From Psammoneis japonica (lineage: Eukaryota), in contig QPGO01000016.1 in assembly GCA_008632985.1 (NCBI GenBank), forward strand, positions 530,840 through 594,839: a stretch of DNA of 64,000 nt, given 5' to 3'. The notes beneath the pieces are model-generated. The model worked only from the letters and a program-made list of their open reading frames with translations. It searched no databases and was not told where the DNA came from. The translations under genes and the position numbers were made by a program. Positions 30,486 through 45,299 of the stretch are shown one piece after another (position 1 is the stretch's first letter; every line of letters begins with the position of its first letter).

Positions 30486-30984
30486 GAAAGATACCTAGTA
30501 GACATATATGTGGGGCAGTGGTATGTAATGGTGTAGTTTTGTCTATTTGCAGCATATGTTTCATATTACGAAGGGACGCTCATGATTTCCTGGTAATAAA
30601 CTGATGCCTATAAGGTTTGCGTCGATAAGCTTCTGCGGTTTGTTCTCGGTGCGCGATGCGGATGGCGAACTCGATTGGCTATTCAAAGGCTCGTTTACAT
30701 CATAATACTTCTACCTGTATCTATCTGTTCTAGCGGCAGGATCGCAAGGTGAAGGTTTCAAAATATGGGATTGCTCCCTTTGTAGAATACTATTTCGTGT
30801 TTGCATGATAAGGTCTTTCTCCTTTGCAGTTCATGTTTGTCGTCTCGCGCAAGATCTTTCGGTAGAATAAGTATGTTGTTGAGTTTGGGGTAATGCAATG
30901 AGATTACCTGTCTCTATTCAAAGGCTATCTTAGCACACCATCTAACGTAGAGGCAGTTTGAAAGACAAGGATTTCAAACCAGCA

Positions 30985-33900
30985 GGTAACATGCTCAAGC
31001 AGCACAACAAAAAGTGTTTAGAGCAGCTGCCCTGCTTGCACCGGCAACATTGCCAACAATCATCCACGTGAGATTTGCCAGTCCACAAAATGGTGCCCCA
31101 CTCAGTGGAATGACAAGGCACTGGCTTGCTTCAACAATTTCAAGCATGAAGTCATGCCAAGTTGTTTCTGTGAGGCTGGCTGAGCACTTCAAAACATCAC
31201 GTTTCTGGCAAAACAAAGTGGTGTTGCCATCTTGAAAGAGGGATCAACCACGAGCAAACAACTTGCTTGTCCCAGCTTGCAGAGACAAGTGTTGCTTGCT
31301 TTCCCACACTGTGACATGTTTGCTGGGTTTGACACAAGCAACCCTCAGTGCCACCTTCTGCTGCTGTCACAAGCTTCAGCTTCACATTCACCTGCTCATG
31401 AGCTGCCATCTGGGTTCCCTTGGTGCCACCTTCAGCTGCTGTCATCAGCTTCAGCTTCACGTTCACCTCACAATGAGCTGCCATCTGGGTTGTTGAGATT
31501 TGTGCAGAGCTGCTTCTGGGAGTTGGCGGAGCCAACACAACACTTTCTCTGCGCATGTGGGTGCAGGTGTGTCTGTTTGTTGCTTGGTTGCTGCAAACCA
31601 ACTTGCTCCATTTTTGCTCCAAAAATGCACAAGACTGTGCCATGTTTGCCAGACCATCAATTTTTTCTAGAGATTGTTCACAATGTTGCCCCTCACCATG
31701 TCTGTTGTTGCTCCCTGCTTGACATCAGCATTGAAAGCACATGAGCTGTCATGAAAAATGTCAGGCTCTTTAAACAGCTGGCGCTTCTCACTCATGAGGT
31801 TTTCCAGGTCTTGTTTTTGTGTGCCTGTGCAATGAGCTCACCCACCCAAGTCCTGATCTGCAAGACAAACAGCTTTCCCTTTTCCTGCAAAGAAAAACAC
31901 CTTGGTTTTCACTGCAGAAAAATGAGCTTGTGTCCCCCACATTTTGCAGGAGTGCTTTTTTTTGCTCCTTTGCCCTTCAAGACCTTGTTGCGTGCACTGC
32001 ATGAATCCTTTGTGCTCCCCTGATTGTCAGCATTCAATGTTGAAAGAGTTGGGCTGCTCATCAGCAGCATTGGACCAAACATGGCAAATGCCATGAAGCC
32101 TTTGAAGATGAACAGTCATCTTTTTCAACCGGGTTGCTCTGCTTGTTTCTAGAGTTGACCATGCTGACAATTCCTTTGAGCTTGTGTGTTTGTGCATGTT
32201 TTTTTTTAACATGCAATCTGTCACATCATCATTTTTCTGCTCAGATCCTGAACTCTCAGGACTTTGGGGAAATGGAGCTGTGTCTTCCCAAATGGCCAGC
32301 TTGATTGTGGCAATTGCCTCCAGGCATTGTTCACAGGAGTCTGACCTGCAAAATGGCAGCAAGATCAACAATGCAGTGCATTTTTGAGAATCAACTTTTT
32401 GCCAGCCAGATTTGTTTGACTCATTCCCACATTGGTCATTTTCAAGTGGTTCTCTGTCAAAGAACTGACCACACACGGAGGCTGTGGCATTCCACAAACA
32501 AAGACACTTGTTGCTTGCAATGCCACACTCCTTTCTGGATTGCTGCTGCAAAGGTCTCTCAGGTGGCATCCTTGTTGTTTTCACAATTGCAGCAGCCACC
32601 CTGAAAAACATTTTCTTTGTGCAAAACACTGCCGCCAAGCAACAAATCTCTGGCACAGTGCTTTGGTGGTTGGCAGAAGACACGCTGTTTGTTGTTGTTG
32701 CCATCAAATCAGTGCTGCCAACATGTTTTGACTTGCAGCACACAGCCGCACACTGCACAAGAACACTGAAAGCCAGTTGTCATTTTGGTGCTGTTGTGTC
32801 AGAAAGAGACCCCCAAGTTTGTGCTCATCAGTGCACCCACCAACAAATTCTTTTTGGCAACTTGCAAATTCTGTGATCTGCTTGAGTGACACTGCCAGTT
32901 TTGCATTTTGGCAATGGCCATGTCTTGCAGACAAAAAAGAAGCCCAGCTCATGATGCACTGTTGTTGATTTTGCAGTGTGGCAAATGGCTGACATCAGCC
33001 TGGCATGGGGAAGAAAGTGGTGCCTGCAATGGCTTGGGGAGAACAACTCGGTTTTGGCTTTTGCAGGTGTGCTTTGAGGACTCAGCGCATTGTGCAGCTG
33101 TCTGCTCTGTTTGACTGTGGCACCTCTCTCATGTGGACATTGTGCGCAGCTTTGTTGAGTGGTTAAATTCAAAATAAGAACACGCCAACAAGGTTGCCAA
33201 TCAGAGACAAATGAGCACAAAAAGGAAGAAAGGGCAGACAGAGACATGCACAACAACTCCGCAGGTTGTGGAAAAAACTCTCTTTTGAAAGTGAAAATGA
33301 CAGCACCTGCACGACAGTGCCAAAAAGCATTTGGATTTTTCAAATGGTCAACTTCTAAATGGCCAAAACTCTGCAGTCCCCACTTCCCTCTCCAGCCTTG
33401 CCCCCAACTGGCTCACTCTGCAGCAGAGAGCTCCACACAACAATGAATGTGGTGTTTTGCAGATTTGACAAATCCATGTTCAAAGCAGGTTAAAAGCAAA
33501 TGCCAAATGTGAAACTTTGTTCAGCAAGCCCTTGGAAATTCTTTACAACAGTTTAAAAAATCATGTGGCAGGCTGTCTGTGCCTTGTGGACAAGCCAGCT
33601 CAACTCTAATCTGAGTCACCTGCACTGCAAGGGCACCAAAAAAATCTCTTGGTTGAGCCCCCTGGCTTGAACTCAACCATTTTCACACAGATTGTGACCT
33701 TCAGTTTGAGCTCACCTCACCTTTTGCAAGCAGTGTGTGTTGCACGTGCCACAGCAAAAGAAACAAGCAATTGATTGTCTGTCATTTTCATGCAATGTCT
33801 CATGTGCTGATCTCATGATGCATTTTGCAGCAACAGCACCACTCCTTGTCCTCCTTGTGTCTGCCTTGTCAGCAGCTCAACATGAAGTTGACCCAGCTTG

Positions 33901-34700
33901 AAGGGGGCTCATCAATGAGATGATCAATTTTCTGCACTTTGGTCTGTCCTGCTCTTTGGTTCTGGGCTTGCTTCATGTTGACAGCATGCAATCTTGATCA
34001 AGACAACATTGCCTTGTGTTTGATCCCAACGTGGCAGCTGGCATGTGCAACAAGGCTGCTGACACTGCTTTGAGCAAATGATCAGCAAGCTTTCTGATCC
34101 TCCCCAAGATCTTCCCTGAGTTGGAGTTGACAACACACCCGCTGTTGCCAGCATGTGAGAGCTCAAAGAATGTGGGGATGAAGAGCCTCCAGATGTGACC
34201 CAAGCATGTTCGCTGCTTCCCCTCTCTCAGGTGGTCACTCAAATGCTCATCCTGACTGCAGCCATTGTTGGCGGGTCCATGTGATGTGACACTCACATGT
34301 GTGCAACTGGAGAATGATGTCACTCAAATCGCGGCATTTGTGGCTGCCACAAACAACGTGGAAGGTGGAGCCAAGCATTGTCAGTGCGGTGTGACTGGTT
34401 GCCAAGTGGCTGTCAACATGAGTCCAGTCTCAACCATGCAGTTCTCTTCTTTCCCATGTGCAGAACCAAGTGATGCTGAGTGGGGCGTTCTTTGCTGATC
34501 TCCAATCCATGTCAGCAGGGTGCCTTTTGATGTCACGGGCTTGAGCCAAAGAAGTTGCCAAAGGCTGGCTGGTGCGATGGGCTGAAACAAGATCCAATCA
34601 GTTGACGGGCAGCTTCTTGCTTTGCCTCAATGCAGGGGGGGAATCACCGAATCAAGGACTTGCCCTCGAACTTGGCGCCAAGAATGATTCAGTTAAAGCA
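30985..34700. other. TpA/CpG-depleted degenerate block (probable decayed TE or gene remnants)
   Basis: Very few TA or CG; ~70-bp internal direct repeat at ~31348-31490; ORFs are Tyr-free and Cys/His-rich. Confidence 0.75.
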
Positions 34701-34959
34701 CCCAATTGAAAAACGGATCACCCCAGAGCAAAGATGAGGACACACAAACAATTCTCGCAAGCATCATTGTGCCCGCGCGGCGAAAAGCAAAAAGCTTCCA
34801 CAAGCGCGGGAATGAACTAACAGGAGAGATGAGAGTGACACCCCATCAATTCCCGGACTGTTCACGATTCGCCATTTCGAGTTGGTCAAGGATATCATCT
34901 CTTTTGCTACTCTCTTTGCTTTCTGTCCGTCTGCAGCAGTGTGAGAACAACCAGTGCTC

Positions 34960-35331
34960 ATGTCGAAAGAAGTTTTTGTTCGCACCAAACCTCACGTGAA
35001 CGTTAGAGGAGGACCAGACATTCTTAATGGCGCAAGTTTTCGTCTGTCCAAAAAGCTAGATGTCAAAACTTCGCTGACCGCACACCGCCCCTTTCAGGGC
35101 AGTCACACATGGACCGATTATAACCTTCACGATCCGGGACGCAGGTCGCTTGCAGAGGAAAATGGTGGCGTGTCTCTCCTTGCTCGCCTCTCTGACAATA
35201 GCGGCAAGGAAACTTTGCTACGGTTTGATCTCACCGGATGCATAGCGATAGAATACGAGCTTACCGTCAATCAAATGGGTGATGCGATTGAAAATCTTCA
35301 CTTTCATTGTGATCCTCTTCCTTTAAACTGA
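34960..35331 (+). CDS. 123-aa protein: EF-Tu-like N-terminal peptide plus putative tail-tube/Hcp-like domain
   Basis: MSKEVFVRTKPHVNV matches EF-Tu MSKEKFERTKPHVNV at 13 of 15 positions; C-terminal LSDNSGKETLLRFDLTGC..EY...AIENLHF pattern. Confidence 0.6.
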   Translation: MSKEVFVRTKPHVNVRGGPDILNGASFRLSKKLDVKTSLTAHRPFQGSHTWTDYNLHDPGRRSLAEENGGVSLLARLSDNSGKETLLRFDLTGCIAIEYELTVNQMGDAIENLHFHCDPLPLN

Positions 35332-35582
35332 GAATCAAGGGGCAAATGGTTGATACCATGAAATGCATTGCGGTGTTAGGGTCGTCTACCTTTTCTACAA
35401 TCCATAATTGAATTTTACGAGTTTCGGCAGTCATCTGTTGCACGATCTAATGTGATCGACTCGAGACAAATATACCGGTAGTATAGCTCTACTTTTACTA
35501 AGCGATTCGTTTTCCGTATACCGGTATGATCTCGCAGGTTTGCTTGCAACGATATCTTACCTTCTTATTATACTGCCCCGAC

Positions 35583-36893
35583 TCACACATCCGTACCGTT
35601 GCCCCGAACAAACTCTTCTTCGTCCGCAAAGGATGCGGCTGGAAGAACATCAAAGAGACTACGCTCCGTGGTTGCCTTTCCAAGGCACGGACACAACCGA
35701 TTATCGCTCCTCCATCTTGAAGCCTCCTTTCCTTCTGTGATGATTTCCTTAAAGTTACGCATCGCATTGTCGGCGGCAACTCGAGGCTTTGGGAGATGAA
35801 ACGGCCAAAGCCAATGATGAATGATTTCAGAAGTCAATTCATCGTAAGCAGTAGCGTGGAATCGCATAAAATCCTTTTTAAAGAACTGCTTCCTTGGCTG
35901 TCCAGTAGGAGGACGAAGGATCAACACCATGCGATCCTGCACTGTTGAGAATGCAGAATCGATACGAAGGGGGACGGTTGATGTGCATCCGTCAAGTGCT
36001 TGGCCAAACTTCTCGCTAATGGTAGTCACATAATCTGTTGGTACGTCTTCTGTAGACGACATGGTCAACAGAATATCTTCTGCAAGTCGTTTCAATGCTA
36101 TCGATGTAGCTTCATGAAGAGCAGACCGACTGCCCATATCGAGCTGTTTGGCTAGCGCTTGCCAAAAGACAGCCACAAGAGCCACGACGCCGACTGTTAT
36201 GGAAAAGTACACTCTCGTGTCATCGCTAAGATCCAGTCCAGACTCGGCCACCAGCGCAAGAACTCCAGCTGCAAGGGTTAATGCAATCGCTGGGAAAAAA
36301 AGGATCCAGTTGTTCACAGCTCGTAGGTTCTGACTCGCCAGCTTGTGCATTTGTCGCTCCTGTTCAATACTTATGAAAAGGTTCTCGAGGACACTTGTAG
36401 GGTCTCGAGTGCAGGGCATGGTGTGCACTGCGAATCGCTGCTGTCGAGTTGGCCTGCGTGAAGTAGTAGAGACGCTGTGAACAGATCGCCTTGCAGCTGA
36501 AAAGGTATCCGTCACATTACTCTGAAGCTCGCTTTGAATGGTCGAACCATCTTCGTCAACCGGAACGGATTTCGCTTTGTCTTCCGTGTTGGCATTGTCG
36601 GTACTCGCCTGTGCCTTCTCGTTCTTTCCTTTTTCGCTCTCTTCCCCACTACTGAATGATTGACTGTATAATTTATCCTTGTATGAGCTCATTTTCGCGG
36701 AGGGTTGACTCGTGCTTGCCACACGCGACGACGTTTCGGGCATTTTCATTTCATTTGCATTCCTCTTGTTGCGACTGTCGTCAGAACTGCTAAAGGATAA
36801 CGAGGCTTCAGCTGTAGTCTCTTCCTGGATATCTTCCTCGATACCAAAAGCTCCAACGCGAAAGGAAGGAAAGGCACCAGTCTCTTGAGACAT
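35583..36893 (-). CDS. SLATT-like 2TM domain protein with long disordered N-terminus
   Basis: H..AS......WILFFPAIALT...TM2...QLDMGSRSALHEATS pattern typical of SLATT. Confidence 0.65.
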   Translation of the reverse strand: MSQETGAFPSFRVGAFGIEEDIQEETTAEASLSFSSSDDSRNKRNANEMKMPETSSRVASTSQPSAKMSSYKDKLYSQSFSSGEESEKGKNEKAQASTDNANTEDKAKSVPVDEDGSTIQSELQSNVTDTFSAARRSVHSVSTTSRRPTRQQRFAVHTMPCTRDPTSVLENLFISIEQERQMHKLASQNLRAVNNWILFFPAIALTLAAGVLALVAESGLDLSDDTRVYFSITVGVVALVAVFWQALAKQLDMGSRSALHEATSIALKRLAEDILLTMSSTEDVPTDYVTTISEKFGQALDGCTSTVPLRIDSAFSTVQDRMVLILRPPTGQPRKQFFKKDFMRFHATAYDELTSEIIHHWLWPFHLPKPRVAADNAMRNFKEIITEGKEASRWRSDNRLCPCLGKATTERSLFDVLPAASFADEEEFVRGNGTDV

Positions 36894-37345
36894 GTTCCTT
36901 GACAAGTGAGAGTCAATGTCAAGAAGTGAGAGTGAGGCAGGCGAAAAGGTGAGAGTCAAAAGTGGATTGCTGTTTTTGACGGATCTTCGTCCCTGTAAAA
37001 ATAATCTTTGATGGAGGGATATTGAGTCCCGCTAGATATGATACGCGACCTATAACCTTACGAACATTAATTTTTATCAAATTTCTAGAGTATTAATATA
37101 TTTTAGTATCAGATTTGGTCTACAAATATTTCCGTTGAACTCCAATTTTTGCGCGGGAAAAACACACTTTGACCCGACACCGGACAAGCAACGGTCGGTC
37201 GATTGAAACTAACCGACCTTCTTGACCTCCTACAACTCCCTACCATCCTATACATTATCTCAAACGCCGTCCCTACAAGAAGTCAGCTGGCGCTACAAGG
37301 TCTTGTCGACACGAAGGGAAAAGGGATGATTCTTTCGTTTTTAAA

Positions 37346-39678: not shown

Positions 39679-41499
39679 ATGAACCTCGCAAGCTTGGGAA
39701 TCTTTTTTCTCGTTATTACTTCTACGATTGCGACACCGTCACCAACTCCATCTCCTACTCCGAGCCCAACGCCGTCGCCAACTCCATCTCCTACACCAGC
39801 TCCCACCCCGAGTCCGACGCCGTCACCCACTCTCACGGATGTAGGTGCTTGTTGTAACTTCATAGAGCATACGTGCAACATGGCTAGTAAAGATGATTGT
39901 CAGAACGATGGCGATCAATGGAAAGGCCCAACCTCTACATGCGAAAGGGACTGCAGAGGCGCTTGCTGTCCACAACCAGGATCCAGGAGGCATTGCTTCA
40001 AGGGAACAAAGAGGGAGTGTAAGGCAAATGAGGGAATCTTCCAGGGCTATGGCAAACAGTGCAGCGACGTCATGTGCCCTACCTTGCGTCCAATAACCCT
40101 TTCTCCATCGAGGACTCCAACGACGGCTCCAACGATCCTACCAACGACCGCCGCACCCACGATGAGTCCAACACAAACTCCAACCGTCCCTGCAACCCCA
40201 CAACCAACCACCATGGATATGGTTCCTGGCGCATGTTGCACCTTGTTTGACGGATGCAAGTTTTATTTTCAAGATATGTGCGTGCTAAACGGAGGCACAT
40301 TTTTGGGTCCCAACGTCAAGTGTGAGGATGCCAAGTGCCCAATAAAGGGAGCTTGCTGCTTGGAAGACGGCTGTGAGATTTTGTTCAAGAAAAGGTGCAC
40401 CAACCAAAAAGGCAGGTTCAAGGGATTTGGTGTAGAGTGTGAACTCGGATTGTGTCCTACTAAACCACCAACTCCATCCCCCACCACCGTGGCACCTACA
40501 CAGAAACCTACTGTTACGCCACTTCCGACCGGAGCTTGCTGTGATGTCGAGGCGAGTTTCTGTACAGATGCCATTGAGAAAGATTGTGATACAGGAGTTT
40601 TTCTTGGCCCCGGTTCCAAGTGCAAGCAGGGTATTTGTCCTACAAGGACAGCTCCCGGTGCTTGTTGCCTTCCCAATGGCGACTGCCGATTGTTGTCGCA
40701 AAAGACATGCTCTATGAACGGGTTATTCTTTCTGGGTCAGGGTACAAACTGTAGGAACGTTGTTTGCCCCGTGTTCAATACTCCACGTCCTATCCCAGTT
40801 CCGCAGACAACGAAACCGACTGGTGCGTGCTGCTTTGGAAATGGACTTTGTCGCGACCTAAGATCAGCTGTGTGTAGGAAAAAGAACGGCAAGTTCTTGG
40901 GTGTCGGCTCCGAATGTAACTACGACAACACCTGTCCCTTCTTGAGAAAGCCCGGGGCGTGCTGTTTTCCTGAAAAGGGGCTATGCAAAACTCTCAGAGA
41001 AAAAGCTTGCAAAGGAAGGGGGGGAGAATTTGCAGGCGAAGGTGTCAAGTGCAGTAAAACCTCGTGCCCGGCCGCTTATGGTGCGTGTTGTTTCTCCAAC
41101 GGAACTTGTATCGTGTCGAGAAGGATGTTCTGTGCTAGCAAGGGCGGAGAGTTTGCTGGCTTGGGTACCGAGTGCAACGAGGGTGGTTGTTCTACTGAGC
41201 AAGCCGGAGCTTGTTGCTGGAGAAATGGCGAGTGCAGCATGCTAAAGGCTTCGAGGTGTTGGAAAAGGGGAGGTAGCTTCAAGGGAGCTGGAGTCAAATG
41301 CAGAAGAAACACGTGCCTTGCACCCGCCGGCTTAGGTGCCGATTGCAACAAAGGCGACTGTTCCTTTGAGCAGCCCGGAGCTTGTTGCTGGAGAAATGGC
41401 GAGTGCAACATGCTTAAGAAATCGAGGTGTTGGAAAAGAGGAGGTAGTTTCAAGGGAGCTGGCATCAAGTGCAGAAGAAACACGTGCGTTGCACCCTGA
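39679..41499 (+). CDS. Secreted Cys-rich GACC-repeat protein 1 (11 modules plus one partial, Pro/Thr linkers)
   Basis: Signal peptide; (TPSP)n; repeated GACC-C-C-G.F.G.G..C-C six-Cys module. Confidence 0.9.
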   Translation: MNLASLGIFFLVITSTIATPSPTPSPTPSPTPSPTPSPTPAPTPSPTPSPTLTDVGACCNFIEHTCNMASKDDCQNDGDQWKGPTSTCERDCRGACCPQPGSRRHCFKGTKRECKANEGIFQGYGKQCSDVMCPTLRPITLSPSRTPTTAPTILPTTAAPTMSPTQTPTVPATPQPTTMDMVPGACCTLFDGCKFYFQDMCVLNGGTFLGPNVKCEDAKCPIKGACCLEDGCEILFKKRCTNQKGRFKGFGVECELGLCPTKPPTPSPTTVAPTQKPTVTPLPTGACCDVEASFCTDAIEKDCDTGVFLGPGSKCKQGICPTRTAPGACCLPNGDCRLLSQKTCSMNGLFFLGQGTNCRNVVCPVFNTPRPIPVPQTTKPTGACCFGNGLCRDLRSAVCRKKNGKFLGVGSECNYDNTCPFLRKPGACCFPEKGLCKTLREKACKGRGGEFAGEGVKCSKTSCPAAYGACCFSNGTCIVSRRMFCASKGGEFAGLGTECNEGGCSTEQAGACCWRNGECSMLKASRCWKRGGSFKGAGVKCRRNTCLAPAGLGADCNKGDCSFEQPGACCWRNGECNMLKKSRCWKRGGSFKGAGIKCRRNTCVAP

Positions 41500-43091
41500 C
41501 TACACCTTGTGAGTGTGCAAGCGGCGGTAGAGCCCATCTCTACTTGTTAAAACGAGGGCACAATATTTGCAATTCACATTAAGAAGAAGTTCCATCCAGG
41601 TCAACACCGAGCGGTCACTAGTGTTTCGAAATACGATTGGAAAGATAATGGCGTGCAGCATCTATCTTCAGGGACTAGGGCCATCTAGTCTAGCGGGGCG
41701 CAAGACCGCTACTTTACTGAACATTAAGTCAACGAATGGTCATGGAGGGCAAAGCGAAAGAATTAAGCGTTGAAACTGTCTATAGGTGGCGCCTGGAATG
41801 ATTCAAATTTGCAGATGTGTACAAATTGCGTCATCGAGCGGGTTTACGACCTTGTGATGATTTATGAAAATTCAAAGGCATACCGGTAGAGAAAAAAGAA
41901 CATCGATAAATACGTATCGATCAAAATATAGGCTTTTGTAGTTCTGGAGGGTGTGTCAGTTCTACAAGCGAAATTTTAAGATCGTGTAAAACAAAGTTTG
42001 GTATATGCGCTTTCCCGCCCATGTTTAGTGCCAATAAAGTGAGAACAGTTTGTACCAAAACTTAGATGAGTTGGACTGATTCAAACTAATATGATTTGTT
42101 GTTTTCCAATTGTGCCGTCGGTTCATGGATCTGTACAGGCTCAATCAACGTAGCACCATAGATAGAATACATCATGGCTTTATATATAATATGAAATGAT
42201 TTTAACTCTAGAGCGTCTTCCGTATTACCGTATTATGAACTATGTCGGAAGCATATCCATGAGGTTGCTTTGACAAACGATGCAAAGATTGCTACATTAG
42301 CAACCGTCACGCATATTAGCTCGGCATGAACTGCGGAACTGCTTACCGGTAGCCGGAAGATTGAAGATACACTGCGCTGTTGTCGGGACAGATCTGGGAT
42401 CTACCGTATGATCTATGATCTACAGTATGGCGCGTGCAATATCTTCTCTGCAGTTTGATTTGAGTGTCTCTGAAGTGTCTGTCCTCCGCGACGGACAGCG
42501 GGGTTACTTCCTTGTTGACACTTTTGTCCAGTACCTCACTGACGGTATTTACGTGTCGCGGATGTCTTCCACGTCGGCGAACGTTTAAGAGAAAAAACTA
42601 CATACATATCCCCACGTAGAAATACGGGATAGAACTTTTTGTCATGATCGTGAATTTTGTCCGAGGGTCATCACGATCGCCGCACGCTTATCATGAGCGA
42701 GGAGAAACCAATTTCAGTGATGACTTCGCAATTCCAATGATCCTTGTTCTGAAACGGACAACACACTCACCTTTCACTCGCGTGATGTCTTGCACAGCAT
42801 ACCTTAAGTAATGTTAAGCACACAGGCAGTGCTGGCGCCATGCTTCTCTTCTCAAATGCTCTTCCATAACAACGTTAATACTTATTCAATGAAATGCGCA
42901 GGCACACCAAACTTTGATTGATTGCATATGCGTCAAAATACTTATATCGACTCCTCTTATCATACTGCAGCGCAACTGTCGCAGGTCCACGCGAGGATTT
43001 GGTTTTTCCATCCGGGGTCCTCAAACCTTCTCTCACAAAAAGTAGCTCACAACTTTTCGAGCACAAGAATTCAGTGAACTACTCGGCCAAG

Positions 43092-45299
43092 ATGAAGTTC
43101 GCGCTCACAGCTGTCGTGAGCATTGGGGCGTTGGTCACACCGTGGCTTGCCCAAGCAGGCTCGGAAGAAGTCGCCTTTGATTTGCCTGTCGAGAGGGACT
43201 TGTACGCACCTCCTGGTGTCTGTTGCAGTCCTCACGGCAAAGACAGCTGTATTCCAGCCGATTCGGGAATTTCGGAGGTCGCTTGTGATGCCGTCAAGGG
43301 TGAATGGTTTGAGGGAGGAAATTGTACGACGGATTGTCTCGGTGCTTGCTGCAAGGATTTCACGTGCTACACTCTGTCCTACCACTCGTGTACGCACCCG
43401 AACTTCAATGGTATGTGGAACGGCTTCGGTGTCGACTGTGACACATTCGTTTGCCCAACTCCAGCACCTACCGTTGCGCCTACGACCATGGCACCAACGA
43501 CCGCGGAGCCCACCAAGTCTCCTACGAAGGAGCCGACTATGGCTCCTACCACCGGTGCTCCTACCGCCAAGCCTACCCCAAGTCCGACCAGATTCGAGGA
43601 TGGTCCCGGTGCGTGCTGCACGCCTTGGGATGGATGCCTTGAGAACACCTCCCAGCAATCTTGCGGTCTCCTCGGTGGCAGCTTTGTTGGCGCCGGTGTG
43701 AACTGTACGAGAGGCCTTTGTCCCGATAGGGGCGCGTGCTGCCTTGACGGGGGTTGCACCTACGAATTCAAGAGCAAGTGTAACATCGCTGGAGGCGACT
43801 TCAAGGGTCGCGGAGTCATGTGCGGAAAACCCGAAGACGGTGTGTGTCCCACCAAACAGCCGACCTTCGCCCCCACTCCGGCTCCCACTCCAGCCCCTAC
43901 TGCTGCTCCCACCAAGGTTCCCACCACCCCATCTCCTACTACCATTGAGCATGTGCCTGGCGCATGCTGCCTTGATAGCGTCAACGGCGGTGAGATTTGT
44001 GCCGAGTTGACAAGGCTCGACTGTAAGAGAGCTGTTGGACGATTCCGTGGATTCGGTACCGTTTGTGACGAGAAGAACGAAATTTGTTTGATTACCGACC
44101 CGCCAACCCCTTCTCCTACCGTGGAACCTGGTGCTGGAGGTTGCTGCGTCCCAGGGTTCGACCGGTGCTTCACGACATCCTTCGACACTTGTACCAAAGT
44201 CAACATGGGTCAGTGGCTTGGAGAAGGACCCACCTGTACGAAAGACATTGTCTGCCCAATCACCGAGCCGCCTTCGCCATCCCCGTCTGGTGCTTGCTGC
44301 ATTACTCTTCGTAACGGTCTTCCATACTGCCTTCCCGACTCCTCCGAGCAAACTTGCGCTAGCCAGCCTGGTGGACAATTCGTGAATGGAGGCAACTGCG
44401 ACGATATCCACTGCCCTATTACCCCGAGCCCAACTCCTTCTCCTCCGAATCCCGACGACCCCGAAGGTCCTTGCTGCTTCCCCGGAGATCCCATGTGTTA
44501 CATTTCCTCCTTTACTTCCTGCGTTCTTTTGAGCCAAGGAAAGTTCTTTGGATTTGGAAACACGTGTGACAACATCCAGTGCCCCGGGCCTACTCCCACG
44601 GATCCTCCGACCACTCCTGTCAACAACAAGGGAGCATGCTGCCTCAAGGACAAGCGTTGCCTTGTTCTCAGACAAGGAAACTGCTTGAAGAGAGATGGTG
44701 ATTTCAAGGGAGTTGGCAAACCGTGCGGTCCCAACAACTCCTGCCCCGTCCCAGTTCGTCCTACAAAACCCCCGACTTTCGGAAAGACTGGTGCTTGCTG
44801 CCTCAAGACGGGCCGTTGTCTCAAACTCAAGCCTGGAAACTGCAAGCGGCGTTACGGTCATTACTTTGGTGATGGCACACACTGCGGTCCCAACAATACC
44901 TGTCCACCTGATAACTCGAACAAGCCCGGCGCCTGCTGCTTCCCCGAAAAGGGAATTTGCCGCAACCTCAAGGGGTCCATCTGCAAGAAGCAGGGTGGCG
45001 ACTTTACGCCTGGAAAGAAGTGCAACAAGAAGACCTGTCCCGCTGCGTACGGTGCCTGCTGCTTATCGGATGATTCGTGCATTGTCGTCAAGCCCAAGTT
45101 CTGTGCCAACAAGAAGGGTCACTTTGTTGGATTGGGTAGTGTGTGCAAACCCGGTACCTGTCCAGTCAGCGACAAGCCCGGTGCCTGCTGTCTGGGAAGC
45201 AAGGGCAAGTGCAAGATCTTCAAGAAGAGCACTTGCTGGAGGAAGGGAGGCAAGTTCGTGGGAGGCTACTGCAAACCGGATACTTGCCCCGTTTACTGA
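43092..45299 (+). CDS. Secreted Cys-rich GACC-repeat protein 2 (13 modules)
   Basis: Signal peptide MKFALTAVV; same module and linkers; shared KPGACCFPEKG and CPAAYGACC with protein 1. Confidence 0.92.
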   Translation: MKFALTAVVSIGALVTPWLAQAGSEEVAFDLPVERDLYAPPGVCCSPHGKDSCIPADSGISEVACDAVKGEWFEGGNCTTDCLGACCKDFTCYTLSYHSCTHPNFNGMWNGFGVDCDTFVCPTPAPTVAPTTMAPTTAEPTKSPTKEPTMAPTTGAPTAKPTPSPTRFEDGPGACCTPWDGCLENTSQQSCGLLGGSFVGAGVNCTRGLCPDRGACCLDGGCTYEFKSKCNIAGGDFKGRGVMCGKPEDGVCPTKQPTFAPTPAPTPAPTAAPTKVPTTPSPTTIEHVPGACCLDSVNGGEICAELTRLDCKRAVGRFRGFGTVCDEKNEICLITDPPTPSPTVEPGAGGCCVPGFDRCFTTSFDTCTKVNMGQWLGEGPTCTKDIVCPITEPPSPSPSGACCITLRNGLPYCLPDSSEQTCASQPGGQFVNGGNCDDIHCPITPSPTPSPPNPDDPEGPCCFPGDPMCYISSFTSCVLLSQGKFFGFGNTCDNIQCPGPTPTDPPTTPVNNKGACCLKDKRCLVLRQGNCLKRDGDFKGVGKPCGPNNSCPVPVRPTKPPTFGKTGACCLKTGRCLKLKPGNCKRRYGHYFGDGTHCGPNNTCPPDNSNKPGACCFPEKGICRNLKGSICKKQGGDFTPGKKCNKKTCPAAYGACCLSDDSCIVVKPKFCANKKGHFVGLGSVCKPGTCPVSDKPGACCLGSKGKCKIFKKSTCWRKGGKFVGGYCKPDTCPVY

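Follow-up and report, generated by a model that had tools for sequence, protein, structure and literature searches.

A lone nuclear gene of the alga Psammoneis japonica encodes a predicted tail-tube fold with an EF-Tu-like N-terminus

Here we describe a lone nuclear gene of the alga Psammoneis japonica whose 123-residue product, P0001, is predicted to adopt the fold of tail-tube and Hcp proteins and begins with a near copy of the N-terminus of bacterial EF-Tu. The gene lies in a 64,000-nucleotide (nt) stretch of assembly GCA_008632985.1 (contig QPGO01000016.1, positions 530,840 to 594,839, forward strand), hereafter called the window, whose coordinates are used throughout. The fold is already known; new are the architecture of the protein and the host. 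Our tentative interpretation is that P0001 is a domesticated tube ring with the putative function of showing bacterial peptides as a bait or decoy. To our knowledge, tail-tube and Hcp folds are parts of phages and of the injection machines of bacteria, and an intact, host-adapted tube part kept alone in an algal nucleus would be a rare case. The literature searched, mainly at the level of abstracts and with most subscription papers outside it, holds neither a report of such a case nor a description of the P0001 family. The gene and its parts are as follows.

34960..35331, + strand: single-exon gene for P0001 (123 residues), predicted tail-tube/Hcp fold with EF-Tu-like head, based on translation, relatives, alignment-based model and codon use
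34960..35004, + strand: residues 1-15, copied from the N-terminal arm plus first strand of EF-Tu, 13 of 15 residues identical to bacterial EF-Tu heads
35032..35091, + strand: residues 25-44, predicted strands β2 (25-30) and β3 (37-44) with a short turn, where tubes have a long ring-stacking hairpin
35104..35139, + strand: residues 49-60, candidate second peptide slot around the invariant W51, resembling the WTD-N--DPG motif near the N-terminus of baseplate proteins from injection systems
35170..35310, + strand: residues 71-117, three C-terminal strands of the predicted tube fold, with invariant C94, E100, E111, L113, F115 and C117

The protein starts with MSKEVFVRTKPHVNV, continues with RGGPD and is closed by a TGA stop; another in-frame stop lies six codons 5' of the ATG. 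The GTIGH/P-loop and G domain of EF-Tu are missing, as are its domains 2-3. The open reading frame (ORF) is intronless, given that its relatives align end to end from Met1 and that contigs of two runs, X1 and X2, cross it without gaps or joints. These results bear out an earlier sequence-only reading of the window, which had reported an intronless 123-residue frame with an EF-Tu-like start and no GTIGH or G domain.

P0001 is predicted to have a tail-tube fold

We modeled P0001 using AlphaFold2 with the family alignment (pLDDT 71, pTM 0.63; five models spanning 51.6-71.0). The model contains strands at residues 12-15, 25-30, 37-44, 71-78, 85-103, and 109-117 and helices at 50-54 and 59-67. When it was compared with 48,161 chains by VIA-align, nine chains matched at Z ≥ 8, and each of them comes from a tube, contractile injection system (CIS), T4 tail or Hcp structure. 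Top-ranked was the tube of the Photorhabdus virulence cassette (PVC; 6j0b_a, Z 10.0, root-mean-square deviation (rmsd) 4.6, 116 residues aligned); others included 7aeb_Y (Z 8.8) and Bacteroides Hcp5 (Z 8.6, rmsd 2.9, 100 aligned). The best unrelated-looking rows reached about Z 7, with PilZ-type chains at 7.1. Foldseek returned a phage 812 neck/tail chain as its best pdb match (E 4.2e-4) and a best viral match at E 7.1e-4, and structural re-alignment added Flavobacterium Hcp1 (6bdc; Z 9.4, rmsd 2.7, 103 aligned). A model built from the single sequence (pLDDT 40.5) gave no structure match at Z ≥ 5. In an atlas of language-model features, P0001 scored 0.93 to tube clusters with 151-164 of 256 features shared, and its relative P0002 scored 0.94 with 174 shared; PF06841 is present on 29% of the matched cluster. 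A tail-tube β-sandwich plus helix is therefore a supported prediction for P0001: the alignment-based model matches tubes in three structure searches and one re-alignment, and the language-model features agree, as the sequence-only reading had guessed from a C-terminal residue pattern that is present with slightly different gap lengths.

The closest known systems are the gp19/Afp1 tubes (PF06841; PVC 6J0B, antifeeding prophage 6RAP/6RAO, Algoriphagus CIS 7AEB, Streptomyces CIS 8BL4), which the predicted fold resembles over nearly the whole chain at Z 8.5-10.0. P0001 shares their C-terminal register, F/W-x-L/F ... P-[VI]-K-W ... A-x-E-x-L, and its multi-copy model shares their head-to-tail strand packing. 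Unlike these tubes, which are 139-155 residues long, P0001 has a hairpin about 15 residues shorter, carries an EF-Tu copy as its N-terminal arm along with two invariant cysteines, is encoded by a nuclear gene that stands alone, with neither sheath nor baseplate, and falls below the Pfam profile at E 10. The Hcp/TssD proteins of type VI secretion systems (T6SS; Bacteroidota 6BDC, 7YW0 and 8GRA, Pseudomonas Hcp3 9QPE) gave the lowest rmsd values, 2.7-3.2 over 100-103 residues, at a similar resolved length. P0001 is nonetheless only 3-9% identical to them, does not match PF05638 and has no T6SS context that we could find.

Sequence support for tube ancestry is weak. Using hhalign, residues 74/75-114/115 were set in register with gp19/Afp1-type tubes, pairing the P-[VI]-K-W and A-x-E-x-L motifs of the family with those of the tubes; the tube alignment comprised nine ORFs retained by a motif filter from 19 bacterial tube loci. 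Global hhalign comparison of the family with the tubes failed (probability 0.1%), and none of the ten family members matched any Pfam family at E ≤ 10, leaving the PF06841 and PF05638 profiles both unmatched. Given a tube-like predicted fold without a profile match, P0001 is gp19/Afp1-like in fold and falls outside PF06841.

Two cysteines of the C-terminal strands, C94 (35239-35241) and C117 (35308-35310), are invariant in 10/10 rows, lie on neighboring strands and are missing from the nine aligned bacterial tubes. They could possibly form a disulfide or a metal site, which would fit poorly with a cytosolic location.

The ring-stacking hairpin is cut short in the family

The spacing from the glycine before β2 to the L-x-x-x-[KR] strand is 15 residues in P0001 and 15-21 in nine of ten family rows, compared to 31-33 in seven of nine bacterial tubes, these being the rows and tubes in which it could be measured; the register was set by a motif regular expression rather than by superposition. 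By this measure, the β2-β3 hairpin is about 15 residues shorter in the family than in tubes. In published work, this hairpin joins rings in pyocin and T4 tubes (PMC6088184, PMC12803255), its deletion blocks polymerization in SPP1 and T5, and removal of the loop in phage YSD1 yields hexameric rings (PMC8718954). The same source describes free rings as normal for Hcp (PMC8718954), and another study reports that N-terminal residues of tubes govern assembly (PMC10034513). P0001 amounts to a natural hairpin-deletion experiment and offers a direct test of tube proteins unable to stack; because it is a soluble protein of 123 residues, this question should be readily testable.

Modeled as four copies, P0001 packed head to tail with a score of 0.49, against 0.00 for the best of three controls. 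In this model, residues 95-109 contact residues 25-33 and 8-11 of the next copy; contact agreement between runs was at least 55% and the partner pLDDT at least 56. The mark used for the complex score was reached by 21/30 solved microbial homo-pairs and 0/23 single chains, and by 17/29 and 0/30, respectively, for eukaryotes. Ring formation by P0001 is, on this modeling, fairly probable.

We also searched the genome for the remaining parts of an injection machine. A six-frame search of the possibly incomplete assembly found no sheath, baseplate-J or PAAR protein (PF04984, PF04865, PF05488), with the search controls matching in 3/14 genomes each. No gp19 gene was found with PF06841 in a search whose control matched in no genome; in a separate run, the same family search matched 13/81 genomes. 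Taken together, the short hairpin and the lack of sheath, baseplate-J and PAAR matches argue that P0001 is not part of an injection machine, and its eukaryotic neighbors likewise set it apart from CIS loci, whether extracellular (eCIS), T6SS or myophage tail. The same two observations make single rings somewhat likelier than tubes. It is highly unlikely that P0001 polymerizes into a tube or serves an injection-like device of the alga. In favor of such a role, eCIS tubes head the list of fold matches and the modeled copies pack head to tail; against it, the hairpin is some 15 residues short and the genome searches yielded neither a sheath, baseplate-J or PAAR gene nor a second gp19 gene. The earlier description of the protein as tube-forming is probably wrong for the same reasons.

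A second tube-fold gene is present elsewhere in the genome. Contig C34 carries a T6SS Hcp match at 219354-219731 on the minus strand (PF05638, E 1.6e-16) that contains one internal TGA; it is the sole PF05638 match in the genome and was missed by searches with P0001 or its relatives.

The head of P0001 copies bacterial EF-Tu

Residues 1-15 of P0001 match bacterial EF-Tu heads at 13/15 positions, a score reached by 0/1000 shuffles. The sequence leaves EF-Tu after residue 15, residues 16-18 being different. Seven of eight independent family members match EF-Tu heads at 12-15 of 15 positions, again with 0/1000 shuffles as high, and in P0003 the match extends to 18/19 and reaches GTIG. These comparisons used five distinct heads from ten EF-Tu loci that were fetched with family-derived patterns, so that close heads are favored. 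The family profile also finds PDB chains of EF-Tu of the E. coli type (E 2.6e-5). The corresponding region of EF-Tu (the elf18 region; TIGR00485, PRK12735) differs in that the family copy ends before the P-loop and has no G domain. Elf18 is the N-terminal epitope of bacterial EF-Tu, and elf18/EFR is described as a receptor system of the Brassicaceae.

Conservation is concentrated in the head. Mean pairwise identity over 28 pairs is 0.69 for residues 1-15 vs. 0.40 for residues 16-117, and the variation in the head falls mainly at positions 2, 5, 7, and 15, which are those that vary among the five EF-Tu heads. In the model, residues 1-9 are of low confidence and residues 12-15 form the first strand (DSSP).

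A second stretch may resemble bacterial peptides

Residues 51-60 match SalCis12 at 9/10 positions (E 0.36). Three of the four PDB matches of P0001 at E ≤ 10 are injection-system baseplate proteins (E 0.36-0.96), the fourth being EF-Tu. The baseplate motif is present in 4/8 fetched bacterial injection-system stretches, one carrier being a confirmed Baseplate_J protein. Agreement with this motif reaches 8/12 positions in P0001 and 9/12 in P0002 (0/1000 shuffles each), and the remaining six members show no clear match. At the same tryptophan, P0003, P0010, and P0006 match the start of a bacterial RNA-recognition motif (RRM) at 7/10, 6/10, and 4/10 positions (0, 1, and 4 of 1000 shuffles, respectively). 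The motif sets behind these counts were chosen post hoc, after viewing the sequences, and drew in part on motifs known beforehand. Neither the baseplate nor the RRM likeness stood out when 10-mers were compared with six-frame translations without a preset target, and both appear in the targeted test only; PDB searches returned no RRM for the P0003 stretch and neither baseplate nor RRM for P0002 and P0010. The K-R...W spacing is also compatible with a motif of the tube itself. The bacterial likeness of slot 2 is suggestive.

In the near-identical P0003, P0007, and P0008, the invariant tryptophan is followed by an extra stretch of about 50 residues rich in Gly and Asp, which shows that the site tolerates large inserts.

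A display ring is a tentative explanation

In the mechanism that we favor over its rivals, at somewhat less than even odds, a gp19/Afp1-type tube gene of a bacterium or phage would have gained an EF-Tu head and lost most of its stacking hairpin. The host would have retained the protein in the form of single rings that are free and probably cytosolic. Residues 10-15 of the head would supply the first strand and contact the neighboring subunit while the basic arm of residues 1-9 hangs free. Such a ring would display the EF-Tu head once per subunit, together with a second bacterial-looking peptide at the helix, and the displayed peptides may act as bait or decoy for a putative reader of that peptide. 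A cytosolic location is suggested by the lack of a hydrophobic leader or membrane segment, since no 19-residue stretch exceeds a Kyte-Doolittle value of 1.03 in the eight members. The conservation of the arm, which exceeds that of the fold core, suggests a reader and hence a bait or decoy. A peptide-reading partner is an evenly balanced prospect; if present, it would be a peptide reader outside flowering plants, and P0001 lends itself to a ready test of it. As a putative mimic, the peptide proposed in the sequence-only reading fits this conservation pattern.

A more ambitious version is unlikely. It would make P0001 a eukaryotic epitope-display ring with two bacterial-peptide slots, one for the EF-Tu head and one for a baseplate or RRM motif that differs between members. 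In a conflict between alga and bacterium, the ring would offer a multivalent decoy, or bait for a sensor. It would also represent, among algae, a broader and hitherto undescribed class of peptide-cassette proteins that implies a reader of the EF-Tu N-terminus.

The head could also be explained by architecture, which we regard as somewhat unlikely. An old fusion would have joined a truncated tube gene to the 5' end of a tuf gene from a bacterium, with the EF-Tu arm and strand replacing the tube arm and β1 and being kept for ring assembly. There would be no EF-Tu-type reader, and the ring would have another job, such as that of a small-protein carrier or chaperone, as for Hcp. This explanation is consistent with the predicted strand at residues 12-15 and the predicted contact of residues 8-11 with the next subunit, with the control of assembly by tube N-termini reported in the study cited above (PMC10034513), with the compact Bacteroidota Hcp chains being the lowest-rmsd matches (6bdc, Z 9.4, rmsd 2.7, 103 aligned), and with the tolerance of head decay in P0006. 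It sits poorly with the near-invariance of residues 1-9, which are of low confidence in the model, while the fold core has drifted to about 40% identity. Moreover, substitutions in the head stay mostly within EF-Tu letters, and slot 2 likewise resembles unrelated bacterial peptides.

Several observations weigh against a domesticated display ring. The head of P0006 has decayed (6/15; 7/1000 shuffles), and P0002 and P0011 each deviate at three positions, two of which lie beyond the EF-Tu-variable positions; these cases indicate that the head peptide is not indispensable. Residues 8-11 lie in the predicted interface, so that structural demands by themselves could preserve part of the head. Loop loss does not always leave rings: SPP1 gp17.1 is monomeric after loop deletion (PMC8718954) and loop removal in P74-26 abolishes assembly (PMC10034513). 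The four-copy job was run without an alignment, unlike its calibration, and may have passed by likeness to solved tubes. As to ancestry, the shared-feature count of P0001 (151-164) is below the 170 typical of same-family matches, the hhalign register has a probability of 1.8% (E 0.027, 40 columns) with 2/200 column shuffles as high, and a hidden Markov model of the nine fetched tubes scores family members no better than shuffles. Finally, the hint of transcription described below is inseparable from the convergent gene at 35583-36893.

P0001 has nine metagenomic relatives

A HMMER search with P0001 over 1.84 billion representative sequences (cut-off E ≤ 0.001) returned five matches. Four are relatives over their full length, the best at E 3.6e-18 and 46%; P0005, a 1,259-residue repeat protein with no passing stretch, was dropped as spurious. 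P0007 was added by cluster look-up and P0008-P0011 by profile search (seven matches among 2,524 candidates), with sequences taken from JGI, ENA or Logan contigs. The family thus comprises P0001 and nine metagenomic relatives that are 33-45% identical to it, with 14 invariant columns in the ten-row alignment. Since P0003, P0007, and P0008 are near-identical, eight members were counted as independent.

Other searches returned no further members. Word-index searches with P0001 yielded relatives among 0/7 and 0/190 candidates, Pfam and NCBIfam gave no match and PHROGs matched residues 1-15 only (E 0.3). No relative was found in GTDB genomes, viral contigs, phage records or plasmid records by scans of limited sensitivity. 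The metagenome locus scan gave at least eight loci, all of them, among the matches listed, at the EF-Tu head of full or partial EF-Tu frames; both loci of the viral scan were of this kind. Candidates set aside were two GTDB and 12 viral pattern matches not homologous to P0001, plasmid match H3 (E 2), which was not used as a relative, and two weak matches, both noise, that profile A3 gave in 201 genomes belonging to a single bacterial phylum. The donor clade of the tube fold was not found in these scans. An origin of the fold in bacteria or phages is very probable all the same, which leaves the earlier suggestion of horizontal acquisition likely for the fold and without a donor.

The locus resembles that of a living host gene

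The surroundings of P0001 include two further features.

31000..34600, no strand: TpA/CpG-depleted block upstream of the gene (TpA observed/expected 0.05, CpG observed/expected 0.16)
35583..36893, - strand: convergent neighbor gene with a weak SLATT-like two-transmembrane match (PF18160, E 0.0038, below the cut-off)

P0001 is present as a single copy in the 91.4-Mb assembly, as shown by protein and DNA pattern searches, and is flanked by eukaryotic genes, one FEN1/XPG-like and the other RPB8. A 10,306-nt contig of run X1 links the ORF to these neighbors at even depth; X1 is possibly the source of the assembly, and X1 and X2 are one sample. The ORF has observed/expected ratios of 0.47 for TpA and 1.10 for CpG, similar to three neighboring regions measured. 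Its synonymous codon score is 0.032 per codon, based on a table of 13 window ORFs whose own range is -0.007 to 0.094, and 5/2000 uniform-codon nulls equal it. With host-like codons and escape from TpA/CpG loss, P0001 looks like a living host gene. We therefore consider it quite unlikely that the gene came in as a passenger of a virus, mobile element or endosymbiont that has not been sampled, a recent algal copy of little use from a family whose work lies elsewhere, for example as a counter-defense decoy. The patchy spread of the nine relatives, all on short contigs (longest 779-9,821 nt), would suit a passenger, as would the position of P0001 bordering a mutated, repeat-like block and the separate Hcp match with an internal stop in the same genome. 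However, the frame is intact, its codons are host-like, it was spared TpA/CpG loss and its flanks (FEN1-like, RPB8) are eukaryotic; nor did the viral, GTDB pattern, phage and plasmid scans, limited as their sensitivity is, find a relative.

Contigs of run X2, which is labeled "DNA?", gave a weak hint of transcription only. One of them skips a 94-nt GT..AG stretch at 30520-30613 that is kept in X1, so that X2 behaves like cDNA; lying just behind the FEN1-like stop, this stretch is probably an intron of the 3' untranslated region (UTR). Another X2 contig runs gapless across 34853-36915 and spans both the P0001 ORF and the convergent gene, and may represent a pair of transcripts that overlap or a single long UTR in antisense. 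RNA support, one of the points raised by the sequence-only reading, accordingly consists of this X2 contig, which cannot be assigned to P0001 apart from its neighbor. X2 has no cover over 30903-34514, which was not counted as evidence.

An artefact is barely plausible, whether the ORF arose by chance, is a scrap of organellar tufA, stems from contamination or is just the antisense 3' UTR of the neighbor. It would account for the lack of Pfam and NCBIfam matches and for the sole RNA-like contig also spanning the convergent gene, and plastid tufA was outside the head comparison. Against it stand the full-length relatives (best E 3.6e-18) and the X1 contig that joins the ORF to eukaryotic genes at even depth, with the caveat on its source given above. 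Together, the relatives, their alignment and the tube-fold matches largely dispose of this explanation. A copy of the nuclear-encoded mitochondrial EF-Tu of the host was rejected, since this matches the head at only 7/15 residues and 27/45 nt, below the 31-37/45 nt of bacterial EF-Tu heads. The tufA scrap envisaged earlier is thus dismissed for the mitochondrial EF-Tu, to which this comparison was confined.

Several minor features of the region were also observed. The TpA/CpG-poor block at 31000-34600 is sharply bounded and ends about 250-350 nt before the P0001 ATG, sparing the ORF. Positions 34700-34733 hold 34 nt that are about 90% like another contig in both X1 and X2, while a genome search with 34600-34960 found no second locus. 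An acceptor-like pyrimidine tract with several AG dinucleotides lies 5' of the ATG at 34895-34954, where the X2 contig is unspliced. SLATT_5, the weak match of the convergent gene, is a two-transmembrane effector domain found in bacterial defense contexts. Further downstream on the plus strand, 39679-41499 and 42918-45299 encode two neighboring proteins that look secreted and combine repeats of a GACC cysteine module with linkers rich in PTP.
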